Shown one piece after another: positions 2,424-58,904 of a stretch of 64,000 nt of DNA (position 1 is its first letter; every line of letters starts with the position of its first letter). A program made the position numbers and the translations under genes. This DNA is from Escherichia phage AV109: sequence record OR352939.1; one strand, written 5' to 3'. Under the pieces are notes generated by a model. It did not search any database, was not told the origin of the DNA, and saw only the letters and a program-made list of their open reading frames with translations.

Positions 2424-2732
2424 TTACATAAGAAGCAAACGTTCTACCGGAGTACCATCAACCGAAATTACTTTATCAAGGCGGAAAGAACGCCACTGAC
2501 CTAACTCGGTATCGAATGCTCGAACTGATTCACGAGGTTCAGAACGAACTTCTGTTGATGGGTTACTATTTTCATATTTGACTTCAAGTTCGTCGCGGGA
2601 AGCAAACATCGTACGAACATCACCGTTAGCCTTTTCAAATACAACACAATGAACGCCTACAGACAGAATAGTTTTAATACATTCACGAAGAACCATAGTT
2701 TCTTGTTCAGTTAAAATCATATTATTCACCAC
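2424..2732 (-). CDS. hypothetical protein (102 aa)
   Basis: ORF between cd and 31. Confidence 0.45.
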   Translation of the reverse strand: MVNNMILTEQETMVLRECIKTILSVGVHCVVFEKANGDVRTMFASRDELEVKYENSNPSTEVRSEPRESVRAFDTELGQWRSFRLDKVISVDGTPVERLLLM

Positions 2733-3303
2733 AAAAGTTTCGAATTTGTTCCCAATTCAGAGAACGAAGATTATTACGAGAGTACTGAATTACTTCAATA
2801 CCGGCTTTTTTTAGAATGTCTGCCCAATTTTCAGGAGATCGGTCATATAATTCTGCATATACAACCTTTTTAATACCTGACTGTGTAATAGCTTTAGTGC
2901 AATCAGGACATGGAGAAAGCGTCGTATACAACGTAGCACCTTCAATAGAATTACCTTTACGAGCTGCAAACAAAATTGCATTCAATTCCGCATGGATTTC
3001 GTTATTAGCAGACCATGCACTATGAGCGGCCCGATGTTCTTTAGCCAAAACAAAATTATCCACCCGTCCAAATGCTGTAGTGCCTTCTTTATGCCCAGCA
3101 ACGATGACCGGGCTTGGTTTATTCTTCAACCAACCATTTTCGGATGCATGTTCGCAACAGTTTGTACCACCTGAAGGAGAGCCATTATAACCTGTAGAAA
3201 TAATGCGTCCATCTTTTTCAATGACGGCGCCAACTTTCCATGAACAACATTTTGATTCTTGAGAAATCAGATAAGCAATCTGAAGATATGTGCTAGCTTT
3301 CAT
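2722..3303 (-). CDS. cd: dCMP deaminase
   Basis: 193 aa; cytidine/dCMP deaminase zinc motifs HAELNAI and SPCPDC; T4 cd length and position. Confidence 0.9.
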   Translation of the reverse strand: MKASTYLQIAYLISQESKCCSWKVGAVIEKDGRIISTGYNGSPSGGTNCCEHASENGWLKNKPSPVIVAGHKEGTTAFGRVDNFVLAKEHRAAHSAWSANNEIHAELNAILFAARKGNSIEGATLYTTLSPCPDCTKAITQSGIKKVVYAELYDRSPENWADILKKAGIEVIQYSRNNLRSLNWEQIRNFCGE

Positions 3304-15368: not shown

Positions 15369-16112
15369 TTAGGCATTTATGTAGAACCAATTCCACTTAT
15401 CAGATTTTACACGGTAAGTAACTAATCCTGATGAAATTTCAAAATGTCTAGCCGCATCGGCTGCACATTCAAAAATAATCCCATCGCATGAAATCTTTTT
15501 GATGTTAGCTGGCTTTTTGCCTTTCATCTTTTCAGATAGTTTAGTTTTAGTTTTTTCTGAATGTTTGTGATTAAAGAACGGGTTATTTTCACCTGAACGT
15601 TTTCGGCACTTTCCACAAGTATCGGCCGAAGATGGTATGCGAACACCGCATTTACAAAACTTGTGGTTTTCTGGATTCCATCGGCCATTTTTACTTCCGT
15701 GTTTACCATAAAGAGCTTTCCGACCATCAGGACCAAGCTTAAGCATCTTAGCTTTAACAGTTTCAGCTCGTTTCTTAGCAATTTCTTCTTTTAATGGATG
15801 ATTTGAAAGCACATCGCCAAAAGACGCATCAGCAATATTATATCCATTAATTTTAGAATTTAGCTCTTTAATCCAAAAATTTTCTCGTTCAATAATCAAA
15901 TCTTTCTCATATGGAATTTCTTCCAGTATAGAGCATTCAAAAACATTACCATGTTTATTAAAAGACCTTTGAAATTTTATAGAAGAGTGAACACCGTTTT
16001 CAAGGTCTTTAAAATGTCTCTTCCATCTTTTCTCAAAATCTTTAGCACTTCCAACATACACTTTACCGTTTAAAGTGTTTTTAATCTGATAAATTCCGCT
16101 TTTCATAAACAC
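15369..16112 (-). CDS. I-TevI: intron-encoded GIY-YIG homing endonuclease I-TevI
   Basis: near-identical to remembered T4 I-TevI (KSGIYQIKNTLN.KVYVGSAKDFEKRWKRHFKDLE ... DAARHF.ISSGLVTYRVKSDKWNWFYINA); true start probably the third codon (MKSG). Confidence 0.9.
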   Translation of the reverse strand: MFMKSGIYQIKNTLNGKVYVGSAKDFEKRWKRHFKDLENGVHSSIKFQRSFNKHGNVFECSILEEIPYEKDLIIERENFWIKELNSKINGYNIADASFGDVLSNHPLKEEIAKKRAETVKAKMLKLGPDGRKALYGKHGSKNGRWNPENHKFCKCGVRIPSSADTCGKCRKRSGENNPFFNHKHSEKTKTKLSEKMKGKKPANIKKISCDGIIFECAADAARHFEISSGLVTYRVKSDKWNWFYINA

Positions 16113-17685: not shown

Positions 17686-18077
17686 TACTTTTTAAAAGTT
17701 TTTTGCAAAAGTTTGATGATTTCGTCGACGTTGGTTTCATCTACGATACAATGGATTTTTGTTACACCTAAAGTTATACCTTCGTTAGTAGGTTGAGGCT
17801 TTACTAAATCTACTTCAATAAAGTATTTGAACTCGTCAGGATAAATCTCGAAATAAGTTTCAATTTCACCACCGGCAGAACATACAGTACCGTCTTCCAT
17901 AGTTACACTTACTACGTTTGACGTATCGCTATCATAATCAGGTTCCATTCCGTTTACAACAAAACTAGGCCCATGGAGTTCAATCAATTTTAACATCTTA
18001 GCGTTATTGTGTGGTGCTTCTTGAACAAAGTCGTCTTTAAATAAAGGGTTAATGATATAAGATTTTCCGATTTCCAT
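17685..18077 (-). CDS. hypothetical protein (130 aa)
   Basis: ORF with SD GAGGAAA and early promoter upstream. Confidence 0.45.
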   Translation of the reverse strand: MEIGKSYIINPLFKDDFVQEAPHNNAKMLKLIELHGPSFVVNGMEPDYDSDTSNVVSVTMEDGTVCSAGGEIETYFEIYPDEFKYFIEVDLVKPQPTNEGITLGVTKIHCIVDETNVDEIIKLLQKTFKK

Positions 18078-32488: not shown

Positions 32489-32519
32489 TTTTGAATAAAT
32501 ATCCTTAAAAGGAGGTATT

Positions 32520-33179
32520 ATGGCAACACCAAAAGTGGCATTTTCACCTAGTGATATTCTATTTGGGTTGCTAGATCGTATTTTCAAAGATAACGCTACT
32601 GGAAAGGTTTTAATGTCCCGAGTAGCGGTAATTATTCTTTTGTTCCTAATGGCACTAATATGGTACAAAGGAAGTATTTTGCTGGATTATTATGTAAGAG
32701 CTAAGTATGATACTTATACTGAAATAATCCAAAAAGAACGAGCTTTACGTTTTGAATCTGCGGCTCTAGAACAACTGCAAATAGTTCATATCTCATCTGG
32801 TGCAGATTTTAGTGCTGTGTATTCTTTCAGACCTAAAAACTTAAATTATTTTGTCGACCTTATAGCTTATGAAGGCAAACTACCTAGCACAATTTCTGAA
32901 AAGTCCCTTGGCGGATTCCCGGTGGATAAAACGGCCAATGAATATATAATTCATTTAAGTGGCCGTCATTTCTCATCTAAATCAGAATTTGCATTTTTGC
33001 CTACAAAATCTAAGACTGCCGAACTTTCTTATATGTATAGTTGTCCATACTTTAATTTGGATAACATCTATGCTGGAACTGTGACGATGTATTGGTATAA
33101 GGGGAGTAATATACTTGAGGAAGATCGCTTAGCGGCTATATGCAACCAAGCGATCCGAATACTAGGAAGGGCTAAATAA
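32520..33179 (+). CDS. t: holin T
   Basis: 219 aa near-identical to remembered T4 holin (SFSPSDILFG, one TM segment, large periplasmic domain). Confidence 0.92.
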   Translation: MATPKVAFSPSDILFGLLDRIFKDNATGKVLMSRVAVIILLFLMALIWYKGSILLDYYVRAKYDTYTEIIQKERALRFESAALEQLQIVHISSGADFSAVYSFRPKNLNYFVDLIAYEGKLPSTISEKSLGGFPVDKTANEYIIHLSGRHFSSKSEFAFLPTKSKTAELSYMYSCPYFNLDNIYAGTVTMYWYKGSNILEEDRLAAICNQAIRILGRAK

Positions 33180-56781: not shown

Positions 56782-57018
56782 TTAACCACTTACTGATGTA
56801 GGGGTAAACATTGCAGCGTTCTTAGTTTTCCAAGTTGCTGCATCAGAAACGACATCAGAATAAGCTGCCTTTTCTGACGGAAAGATTTGGTAATGAGAAT
56901 CTGCAATCCGATGTTCGTTTGAATAAATCTCAAACGGTACAGAAACTTCCATACCTTTGACTTCTTTGCCTTCACCAGCCGGACGTGTAAAGGTTTTGAT
57001 ATTAACGTAACCACCCAT
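56782..57018 (-). CDS. soc: small outer capsid protein Soc
   Basis: 78 aa; GYVNIKTF, HYQ.FPSEKAAYS blocks match remembered T4 Soc; late promoter upstream. Confidence 0.75.
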   Translation of the reverse strand: MGGYVNIKTFTRPAGEGKEVKGMEVSVPFEIYSNEHRIADSHYQIFPSEKAAYSDVVSDAATWKTKNAAMFTPTSVSG

Positions 57019-57049
57019 AATTAACTCCTTTGTTGTTTAATTACAGGTG

Positions 57050-57057
57050 TATTTATA
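57050..57057 (-). promoter_or_regulatory. late promoter TATAAATA for soc
   Basis: exact TATAAATA on minus strand 32 nt upstream of soc ATG. Confidence 0.65.
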
Positions 57058-57063
57058 ACTTAA

Positions 57064-57585
57064 TCAGTAACCATTATCCTGACGTTCAAAGTTGTGTTGG
57101 TTTTTCAAGTAGTAAAGTTTAAAGATTTCTTCAGCGGAAAGACCCAAACCTTGGAACATATTCAGAACAAAGTGGAGAATATCAATCATCTCGAATTTAA
57201 TTTCAAGCTGGTCTTCAGGAGACAGTTCATCGATACGACGATTACGATATTCAGCATGTTGTGCTTTCCATGGCTTCCACACAGAGCTGGCAGCTTTTTC
57301 ACCGTTGGACATACCACCGAGTGAAGTCAGCAGTTCACGGAATTCATCATCAATATAATCTTTCTGATTACGCAGCCAATCAACAACATCACCGGCAGTA
57401 GCCAATTCATCAGGATGTTTGTTATGTTCAGGCTTGTCATTTGCCAGACGAACCTGTAAAGATTTCTGCATATCAAGCATTACCTGCAGTGGGTCTTTAT
57501 CTTCGTGAATCAGAGCATTAAAATAAGCTTCTTCTGCTTTATCAACACCAGAAATAAGTTGTGAACATTCGTTAAAGTGTGCCAT
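57064..57585 (-). CDS. 56: dCTP/dCDP pyrophosphatase gp56 (MazG-like)
   Basis: 173 aa from ATG 57585 (MAHFNEC..), near-identical to remembered T4 gp56; track start 57600 is a TTG upstream. Confidence 0.88.
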   Translation of the reverse strand: MAHFNECSQLISGVDKAEEAYFNALIHEDKDPLQVMLDMQKSLQVRLANDKPEHNKHPDELATAGDVVDWLRNQKDYIDDEFRELLTSLGGMSNGEKAASSVWKPWKAQHAEYRNRRIDELSPEDQLEIKFEMIDILHFVLNMFQGLGLSAEEIFKLYYLKNQHNFERQDNGY

Positions 57586-57644
57586 TATTTTTCCTTTCAA
57601 TTCAGTATAAGAGAGTTAATTCTAACATTAATTTTATAAAGCGT

Positions 57645-57652
57645 AATAAATA
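57645..57652 (+). promoter_or_regulatory. variant late-promoter-like motif (AATAAATA) upstream of plus-strand small ORF
   Basis: 7/8 match to TATAAATA 22 nt upstream of ATG 57675; same variant as upstream of I-TevI. Confidence 0.25.
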
Positions 57653-57674
57653 ATAAGGTAACTAAGGAGATATT

Positions 57675-57872
57675 ATGTTTAAACTTCCATCGTTAATCAA
57701 CGCTATTAAAGGCAATAAAAAGAAAACTGCTATCGCTGCAATAGTTGTAGGTGGCATTATTTCATGGAACTTCGGGATTGCACCATTGTTAGTTGCCAAT
57801 GGTATTATAGTTCCTTCTGTTCCATTGGATACTGTAGTTGATTTGGCCTTTGCTATTATAGGGCTTGTTTAA
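57675..57872 (+). CDS. small hydrophobic protein (65 aa) on the opposite strand, convergent with gene 61
   Basis: strong SD AAGGAGA 6 nt before ATG; two predicted TM segments; occupies the only minus-strand gene-free gap between 56 and 61. Confidence 0.45.
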   Translation: MFKLPSLINAIKGNKKKTAIAAIVVGGIISWNFGIAPLLVANGIIVPSVPLDTVVDLAFAIIGLV

Positions 57873-58891
57873 ATCTTCGAATAACGAGATAATCTCATTT
57901 TAGCATGCAACCCACTTGAAATATTCTGTTTCATATATTCTAAAATTTCTTGTGGTGTTGCATTTTCTTTCATTACCATATCATTCACATCCTTTGAACT
58001 CCATGGAGCTCGGTCCCAGAACATGACACGTTCGCCTGCATCAACTAATCGCTTCATACGAGCTATAGTATCCGGATGCCTAGGTTCATTATCCATTACC
58101 CATACCCGGCGTTCTTTAAATGGTACCACATCTAAATCTATTGAGCCGCCTGTAATAGCGATTGCATTGGGTATGAATAAACTATCAATAGGACCTTCCA
58201 TTACCCAGACGTCCCCTTCCTTAACACGTTCAACACCATAAATTTTTGTTGCAGACTCAAACGCTTTAATAGTGATATATTTCTGAGGAGCATCTTTACG
58301 AAGTGCACGTCCTTGGAATGACTCGGCCTTCCCATCTTTATTAAAAATAGGAATCACTAAACGCGGTTCAGGAATCTCTTTCTTATACGTACCTGGTTGA
58401 ATCTTGTTGACCAATTTAGGCCATTCTAATGTGAACCATAATCTGTTCCATGATTCTTTAGGAATGCATCGAGACTTAACATATTTCACAATAGGATGCT
58501 CTTCAGGCAACTTGTCCAGACGAGAACAAGACGGCAAAGAATTTATAGTCTTTTTCTCTGGCTCCGGCTTAGCTTCAGGAACCTTTTCAATCTTTGGTTC
58601 CATTCTAGCTTTTTCTTTACGAACTTCCATTAGATATTCGCGATAAAGCTCTTCATCATACTCTTTTAAGTATCCGGAAATTGTATTGTGGTATTGACAG
58701 TTATAGCAATGTACATTACCAGGAGTACCGCCATAATACCAACCGCGAGCTTTCATTGCATCTGTCTGAGAGTCGCCACAAACTGGACATCGAAATGTTA
58801 ATTTAAATGTGCTTGAATTATTGATTTGTCTAAAACGAGGTAGGTGAGAAAACGCACGATAAGCAAATTCATTATCTATCCATTCAGCCAT
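57869..58891 (-). CDS. 61: DNA primase gp61
   Basis: 340 aa; zinc ribbon CPVCGDS..CYNC; near-identical to remembered T4 gp61. Confidence 0.93.
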   Translation of the reverse strand: MAEWIDNEFAYRAFSHLPRFRQINNSSTFKLTFRCPVCGDSQTDAMKARGWYYGGTPGNVHCYNCQYHNTISGYLKEYDEELYREYLMEVRKEKARMEPKIEKVPEAKPEPEKKTINSLPSCSRLDKLPEEHPIVKYVKSRCIPKESWNRLWFTLEWPKLVNKIQPGTYKKEIPEPRLVIPIFNKDGKAESFQGRALRKDAPQKYITIKAFESATKIYGVERVKEGDVWVMEGPIDSLFIPNAIAITGGSIDLDVVPFKERRVWVMDNEPRHPDTIARMKRLVDAGERVMFWDRAPWSSKDVNDMVMKENATPQEILEYMKQNISSGLHAKMRLSRYSKI

Positions 58892-58904
58892 AGTATTCTC
58901 CAGA

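Follow-up and report, generated by a model that had tools for sequence, protein, structure and literature searches.

A conserved small open reading frame converging on the DNA primase gene of T-even phages and its predicted late-expressed membrane protein product

The locus between genes 56 and 61

The 64,000-nucleotide stretch of Escherichia phage AV109 DNA analyzed here (sequence record OR352939.1; hereafter the window) carries a short open reading frame (ORF) between gene 56, encoding the dCTP pyrophosphatase (dCTPase), and gene 61, encoding the DNA primase, on the strand opposite to both. By sequence and position this ORF is RB69ORF029w (NP_861719), a member of the PHROG 2024 family and thus an already catalogued hypothetical protein, not a new kind of element. 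Megablast of positions 57000–58900 gave 99.6% identity to Escherichia phage AV114 and 97–98% identity to many other Mosigvirus genomes, whose annotations name the genes on either side as dCTP pyrophosphatase (gene 56), DNA primase (gene 61) and Soc; judged from these matches the window is an RB69-like Mosigvirus. The gene names 56 and 61, assigned in a first-pass annotation made from the letters of the DNA, agree with the annotation of these relatives. The same annotation had described a plus-strand ORF of 65 codons lying in an interval devoid of minus-strand genes (57586–57868), and both statements hold: the interval is bounded by the ATG of gene 56 at 57585 and by the stop of gene 61 from 57869, and the ORF, with an ATG start, occupies 57675–57872. 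In AV114, which is 99.6% identical, it is the sole plus-strand coding sequence (CDS) among 67 annotated CDS in 42 kb. The features of the locus are as follows.

57064–57585, minus strand: gene 56 (dCTPase); its true start is the ATG at 57585 (MAHFNE...)
57611–57651, minus strand: predicted MotA-dependent middle promoter for gene 56, with the box aCGCTTTA at 57644→57637 and the -10 element TAGAAT at 57624→57619
57645–57652, plus strand: late-promoter-type box AATAAATA (T4 consensus TATAAATA, at -13 to -6), 22 nucleotides (nt) before the ATG
57663–57670, plus strand: Shine-Dalgarno (SD) sequence TAAGGAGA, with a 7-nt match to the anti-SD sequence, 4 nt before the ATG
57675–57872, plus strand: CDS of 65 amino acids, MFKLPSLINAIKGNKKKTAIAAIVVGGIISWNFGIAPLLVANGIIVPSVPLDTVVDLAFAIIGLV, with an ATG start; orthologue of RB69ORF029w, PHROG 2024
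57726–57797, plus strand: codons 18–41, a single predicted transmembrane (TM) helix, in the region with the family-invariant residues W31-N32, P37 and G43
57869–57872, both strands: shared TTAA of the converging stops (ORF TAA at 57870–57872 on the plus strand; gene 61 TAA as the complement of 57869–57871)
57869–58891, minus strand: gene 61 (DNA primase), 340 amino acids, from the ORF table and the annotation of relatives

The ORF and gene 61 converge and overlap by 4 nt through the shared TTAA, as had been proposed, and the same overlap of stops occurs in RB69, T4, Merlin, STP4-a and JS10. The SD sequence is indeed near-perfect, its spacing to the ATG being 4 nt counted from AAGGAGA, or 5 nt from GGAG, and not the 6 nt given previously. 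A strong GGAGG or AGGAG is present at the equivalent position in 12 of 12 orthologous contexts. An Rfam scan of 57300–58200 gave no matches, and a search for repeats in the spacer found nothing meaningful.

Coding status and distribution of the family

The match of the ORF product to PHROG 2024 (described as "unknown function") has E=1.4e-26 and covers residues 1–65 of 65. The protein is 97% identical to its RB69 counterpart and 94–100% identical to the other Mosigvirus copies, with equal position, strand and stop overlap. Absence of the ORF from close relatives, which the first-pass annotation would have counted as evidence against it, is ruled out by the search of other T-even genomes: syntenic orthologues, encoded on the opposite strand and converging on the primase stop, are found in at least nine named genera of Tevenvirinae, including that of T4. 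The frame is kept in Mosigvirus, Tequatrovirus, Gaprivervirus, Dhakavirus, Moonvirus, Gelderlandvirus, Kanagawavirus and Mosugukvirus, as well as in T4-type Klebsiella phages and in one metagenomic lineage. At the same junction and on the same strand we located orthologues in Gaprivervirus CJ20, Klebsiella phage Roth01, a metagenomic T-even phage (L016), Moonvirus Merlin, Gelderlandvirus STP4-a, Kanagawavirus Q7622, Mosugukvirus PM2 and Dhakavirus JS10, being unannotated in the last. The length of the reading frame across lineages ranges from 63 to 69 amino acids.

In T4 itself, the orthologue has 66 amino acids and lies at 17738–17938 (+) of NC_000866, between dam and 61, with the TTAA stop overlap and with GATAAATA and AAAGGAGG upstream. 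The dam-61 gap is unannotated both in NC_000866 (NC_000866.4, 17626–17934; positions 2627–2935 of the extracted T4 locus, L003) and in AF158101, and NCBI has no protein accession for the exact T4 sequence, whereas pipeline-annotated T4-type records do call the orthologue. In T6 (NC_054907; positions 1492–1494 of the extracted locus, L012) an ATT stands in place of the ATG start, and the RefSeq CDS begins at a Met five codons downstream.

Three sequence subtypes can be distinguished, between which the N- and C-termini vary:

Subtype A: T4, RB69 and CJ20
Subtype B: JS10, Q7622, PM2 and the upstream copy in L016
Subtype C: Roth01, Merlin and STP4-a

Orthologues of subtypes B and C match PHROG 2024 at E=1e-20 to 1e-28. 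The L016 lineage carries tandem, overlapping paralogues at 2305–2508 and 2501–2698 (+), the first of subtype B and the second of subtype A. The protein was found by tblastn in 692 phage records, 685 of which cover at least 80% of it in one aligned piece, and the family is confined to phages of Enterobacterales. A profile hidden Markov model (HMM) search of 1.84 billion representative proteins returned only family members (three full-length clusters plus fragments), word-indexed searches returned only close relatives, and a scan of IMG/VR for the locus gave just seven loci. The family is absent from the 61-56 junction of RB49 (Krischvirus), where the two genes are 14 nt apart, and from the junction after gene 61 in 44RR (Biquartavirus), where denV is found on the same strand; because of these absences, the gene is best regarded as a Tevenvirinae-specific insertion at this junction. 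RB49 and 44RR also lack soc and sp in this region, so that a distribution limited to Tevenvirinae is common to those genes and the ORF.

The ORF is almost certainly a genuine protein-coding gene. Within the genus, the ratio of nonsynonymous to synonymous substitution rates (dN/dS; Nei-Gojobori method, NG86) is 0.08–0.3. Differences at the first, second and third codon positions number 18, 6 and 38 between the window and L016, and 32, 12 and 41 between the window and T4, that is, with an excess at the third position. Since in addition one variant (P0032) carries a deletion of three codons that leaves the frame intact, the frame is kept by purifying selection on the protein. Could it instead be a chance reading frame within a regulatory spacer in which the gene 61 transcript ends and the middle promoter of gene 56 lies? 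The spacer does carry a high-scoring predicted middle promoter, which an identity alignment maps to Pm:16038 of RB69 (15998–16038, score 21.6; Nolan et al. 2006, Additional file 4), the 5' end of the ORF in T4-type phages contains a terminator predicted for the minus strand (annotation of fPS-90), and the curated T4 reference has no ORF annotated here. An ATG-initiated ORF of 65 codons arises by chance in 0.9–2.4% of random sequences of equal length and AT-rich composition, so that one is expected in 1–2% of comparable stretches; this frequency is suggestive but not decisive alone, and it is conservation that settles the coding status. The substitution pattern effectively refutes a chance frame. 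Moreover, the frame is kept down to 30–55% amino acid identity in at least nine named genera in which the upstream DNA is unrelated, the SD sequences and the NATAAATA boxes are conserved, and the 14 nt between genes 61 and 56 of RB49 imply that no spacer is needed. We consider that this explanation retains a negligible likelihood.

Conserved as it is, the gene is an accessory one, because it diverges faster than its neighbours, its frame is broken in two deposited T4-type genomes, and it is absent from RB49 and 44RR. Identity between the window and T4 is 52% for the ORF against 72–74% for gp56 and gp61. In T4_583L (MZ375356) there is a 4-nt deletion in the spacer between SD and ATG and a 2-nt deletion near codon 23, and in T4_ev240 (LR597657) a 1-nt deletion in an A-run near codon 16; these indels reflect either dispensability of the gene in these laboratory phages or sequencing errors.

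Promoters, transcript ends and expression timing

Late transcription of the ORF, as put forward in the first-pass annotation, is supported by the promoter analysis and is in our view likely. The box AATAAATA does lie 22 nt upstream of the ATG; it should not be taken for a weak seven-of-eight match, since A at -13 is the commonest natural variant, found in 9 of the 50 listed T4 late promoters, 32 of which are perfect (PMC2988020). T(-13) is poorly conserved across T4-like phages and is often A (Nolan et al. 2006, PMC1524935). From the position of the box, transcription would start near 57658. The polarity of T4 transcription points in the same direction: early and middle transcripts all run the same way, and late transcripts are the only ones made from either strand (PMC2988020), and the ORF lies on the strand opposite to early and middle transcription. 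A consensus scan of the plus strand revealed no sigma-70-like promoter.

The distribution of the heptamer ATAAATA in the window is consistent with this assignment. It is depleted (16 sites versus 29.7 +/- 5.2 expected), and 9 or 10 of the 16 sites are found 17–33 nt upstream of a same-strand ORF with an SD sequence, including a tail-fibre gene, soc and the T-type holin gene. The latter (32520–33179, plus strand; PHROG 860, E=6e-102) is preceded by the identical AATAAATA variant at 32495–32502, 18 nt before its ATG. Some of the sites precede minus-strand seg-like homing-endonuclease ORFs (16136→16130 and 14617→14611).

Comparison of the orthologous contexts extends this picture, as in 10 of the 12 NATAAATA precedes the start codon by 20–30 nt although the upstream DNA is otherwise unrelated and the upstream neighbour varies (dam, seg, 56 or other). 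The box of Kanagawavirus Q7622 is a perfect TATAAATA, and in L016 a box CATAAATA is present 22 nt upstream of the first tandem copy only. The distance from box to ATG is constant, whereas the position of the box relative to the opposite-strand middle promoter varies: in the window the late box is upstream of, and abuts, the MotA box, while in T6 and fPS-90 it falls inside the spacer of the middle promoter. Because the distance to the ATG is kept while the middle promoter shifts, the box is attributed to the ORF and not to the middle promoter. In the window, the MotA-like box ends where AATAAATA begins, giving a compact divergent pair of middle and late promoters.

According to the expression scheme that we propose, gp55-RNA polymerase would initiate at the AATAAATA box, near 57658, after the beginning of DNA replication, and the transcript would have a leader of about 17 nt with the near-perfect SD sequence and would run on the strand not used by any early or middle transcript. 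That gene 56 is under antisense control, one of the roles suggested previously, is unlikely, because the two promoters stand back to back and diverge, giving transcripts without overlap.

The situation at the gene 61 end is different. Where the stops overlap, as in the window and in T4, a scan of the plus strand found no intrinsic terminator after the ORF. In L016, Roth01 and CJ20 the ORF and gene 61 are free of overlap, and a GC hairpin followed by a U run lies between them; such GC-rich hairpins with a U run after them were located at the following positions:

L016, 2699–2716: spacer hairpin
L013, 2663–2680: spacer hairpin
L004, 3199–3316: spacer hairpin

These hairpins look like bidirectional terminators between the converging genes. 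A long-range hairpin is also seen within the 3' end of gene 61, at 57907–57961 (+) of the window and at about 2975–3027 of the T4 locus L003, followed on the plus strand by the T-rich run ATTTTCTTTC. It may act as a terminator for the late plus-strand transcript; its fold in T4 has a z-score of -3.7, the stem is missing in L016 and Roth01, and a consensus fold of the gene 61 3' end across lineages gave no conserved structure.

From these arrangements, the late transcript of the window probably runs some way into gene 61 in antisense orientation, and early and middle transcripts that read through from gene 61 are likely to traverse the ORF the opposite way. An antisense interaction with gene 61 mRNA is possible in AV109; it cannot be the conserved function. 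This bears on the explanation that the selected function resides in the RNA, the late plus-strand transcript being antisense to gene 61 and shutting off the primase late, with an incidental peptide. Read-through is likely where the stops overlap, as no terminator follows the ORF stop, and T4 transcribes both strands at several sites at different times (PMC2988020). Yet selection acts on the amino acid sequence, which designates the polypeptide as the selected product; the hairpin of L016, Roth01 and CJ20 would end the transcript before it became antisense and the protein is conserved there nonetheless; and for gene 56 an antisense effect is made unlikely by the divergent geometry of the promoters. 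We therefore regard a function at the RNA level as highly improbable.

Predicted topology and candidate functions

That the ORF encodes a small membrane protein, as first suggested, is supported by hydropathy, by charge asymmetry and by structure prediction. The best 19-residue hydropathy windows cover residues 18–41. All five lysines (K3, K12 and K15–17) are N-terminal to this hydrophobic core, and the only acidic residues, D52 and D56, are C-terminal to it. An AlphaFold2 (AF2) model computed with the family alignment (predicted local distance difference test score, pLDDT, of 80) contains helices 3–11, 15–41 and 51–62, helix 15–41 having a pLDDT of about 85, and Nolan et al. (2006) predicted one TM segment at 21–41 and no signal peptide. 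On these grounds the product is probably a bitopic inner-membrane protein with its N-terminus in and its C-terminus out. The second of the two TM segments claimed in the first-pass annotation is not supported: the C-terminal apolar run consists of only the 12 residues after D56 (VVDLAFAIIGLV), and 19-residue windows over it include D52, D56 and prolines and sum to +6 to +9 kcal/mol on the Hessa scale. We read the C-terminus as a short hydrophobic or interfacial helix rather than as the second TM segment of a hairpin.

The only part of the protein kept across all three subtypes is a core of the form W-N-[FYL]-x3-P-x-A-x3-G-x2-[LIV]-P-x4-[D/E], which covers the predicted outer-leaflet half of the helix and the juxtamembrane turn. 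This core is likely to be a functional surface, and its position suggests binding to another membrane protein. As we picture it, the cationic N-terminus (K3, K12, K15–17) would stay in the cytoplasm, the helix (about 18–41) would cross the inner membrane, and an acidic, proline-punctuated tail of some 24 residues, with the short hydrophobic helix at its end, would lie at the periplasmic face. The weakest step of this scheme is the last one, in which the helix or the juxtamembrane region would bind another inner-membrane protein, as small single-pass regulators generally do.

Taken as a whole, a genuine, late-expressed gene for a bitopic accessory protein of Tevenvirinae is probably the best explanation of the locus. 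Several points weigh against it. The TM helix is only marginally hydrophobic (un-weighted Hessa value of +0.8 to +3.3 kcal/mol; -2.4 in CJ20), and given this value stable insertion into the membrane is not guaranteed. Regarding expression, Nolan et al. (2006), scanning RB69 with an HMM for late promoters, did not list the site, their study giving late promoters only 5' of known late-gene orthologues (PMC1524935), and the orthologues of Merlin and STP4-a carry ATTAAATA and not NATAAATA. The late box also lies partly within the 41 nt modelled as the opposite-strand middle promoter, and some of its conservation within Mosigvirus may therefore be shared with the latter. The literature search gave no transcript, ribosome-footprint or proteomic data for the ORF, and nothing in the family, structure and literature searches ties the protein to any partner or phenotype.

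Indeed, searches of Pfam, NCBIfam and PDB sequence profiles gave no matches, Foldseek with the AF2 model retrieved no PDB entry and, in BFVD, no family other than that of the protein itself, and the literature search yielded nothing specific to this gene. All source names are "hypothetical" except for two "holin" labels and one "head morphogenesis" label. We do not retain the submitter labels "holin" (OE5505) and "putative holin" (KP1079), which come without evidence, and "putative head morphogenesis protein", the name given in the T6 RefSeq record, is an artefact of annotation transfer, neighbouring genes being similarly mislabelled. Identity of the ORF with the classical rIV locus was also considered and rejected, rIV being sp (PMC6832632).

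Comparison with known systems offers some orientation. The ORF is the same gene as RB69ORF029w of PHROG 2024, with no differences, in a family without assigned function. T4 Imm and Sp are likewise small, non-essential T-even proteins located in the envelope. They have no sequence similarity to the ORF product, and they are encoded on the early strand and made early, whereas the ORF, preceded by a late-type box, is on the late strand; moreover, Sp is a periplasmic protein, unlike the predicted bitopic product. Imm has two TM segments. In size (less than 70 amino acids) and in having one TM helix, the protein resembles bacterial single-pass regulators such as AcrZ, MgrB, KdpF and MgtS, by analogy and not by homology, and the ORF is phage-encoded and presumably expressed late. 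A further point of resemblance is that conserved polar and aromatic residues are found within the helix or at its margin, which suggests that a partner is bound inside the membrane. Finally, the RI antiholin of T4 and signal-anchor-release (SAR) proteins share with the predicted product a modestly hydrophobic membrane segment near the N-terminus, with many small residues, and a C-terminus in the periplasm (for RI, in part PMC6832632), but the periplasmic domain with which RI binds the holin T has about 70 residues, compared with a predicted tail of about 24 residues and no homology in the case of the ORF. About 40% of the ORF helix consists of small residues (Gly, Ala, Ser, Thr) and its Hessa sum is marginal, which recalls SAR domains; we treat this resemblance as a lead and not as a result. 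The helix of CJ20 is clearly hydrophobic.

An envelope or lysis-related role is conceivable, and we advance it tentatively. Ranked first among the possible roles is an accessory, non-essential part in the late envelope programme, in which the protein would affect lysis timing, lysis inhibition or protection against secondary adsorption. A more specific proposal is that of a dedicated lysis protein (a second holin, a pinholin or an antiholin) gating or blocking hole formation by the T holin. The presumed late expression, small size and predicted membrane location of the product fit such a protein, as do the marginally hydrophobic, Gly/Ala/Ser/Thr-rich helix, reminiscent of SAR domains, and the naming of orthologues by the two submitters mentioned above. 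Of the features by which holins are recognized, at least one TM segment is predicted; a highly charged, hydrophilic C-terminal domain (canonical classes I–III) or a large periplasmic domain (T4 T-type), homology to holins and adjacency to endolysin or spanin genes were not found. The C-terminus VVDLAFAIIGLV is hydrophobic, no Lys or Arg occurs after residue 17, and the predicted periplasmic tail of about 24 residues is far smaller than the globular domain of RI. Neither the holin PHROGs nor Pfam gave a match, the neighbours encode dCTPase and primase, and the phage already has a T-type holin (32520–33179). A dedicated lysis protein seems improbable on this balance.

The main functional rival is a host-targeting or exclusion role, in which the protein would act on a host inner-membrane protein (for instance a transporter, a protease, or a membrane-bound effector of defence or abortive infection) or exclude superinfecting phages. 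Its faster evolution relative to the neighbouring core genes, the three sequence subtypes with a tandem duplication in one lineage, and the restriction to phages of Enterobacterales are in line with such a role. The region is also rich in factors of this kind, Sp (whose gene is about 2 kb from the ORF), Imm, Dmd and the AdfA-like 61.2 all being encoded nearby. Most known counter-defence and exclusion genes of T4 are early, however, while the ORF has a late-type promoter, and the subtypes follow genera and not hosts. We judge this role unlikely, though worth keeping in view.

A further and rather speculative reading, to which we give little weight, would have the protein supply a late component so far missing from the T-even response of lysis inhibition or from that to secondary adsorption. 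The conserved outer-leaflet and juxtamembrane motif of this bitopic micro-protein would then contact the complex of T holin and RI, or would sense the periplasmic insult from a superinfecting phage. Such a component could have been missed in 70 years of r-gene genetics because the gene is small, unannotated in T4 and tail-to-tail with the primase gene.

T4 is the reference of the family, yet its curated record lacks this conserved gene (17738–17938, +), the only opposite-strand gene in about 42 kb of the early region. It will have been passed over by proteomic, CRISPR interference (CRISPRi) or knockout screens based on the reference annotation of T4. Should a late membrane product prove to affect lysis timing, lysis inhibition or the envelope, it would be a new player in a classical and incompletely understood system; otherwise, it would be one more among the many small accessory proteins of T-even phages. 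The main value of the observation is thus as a reminder that the T4 reference misses a conserved gene, which becomes a candidate for lysis and envelope genetics.

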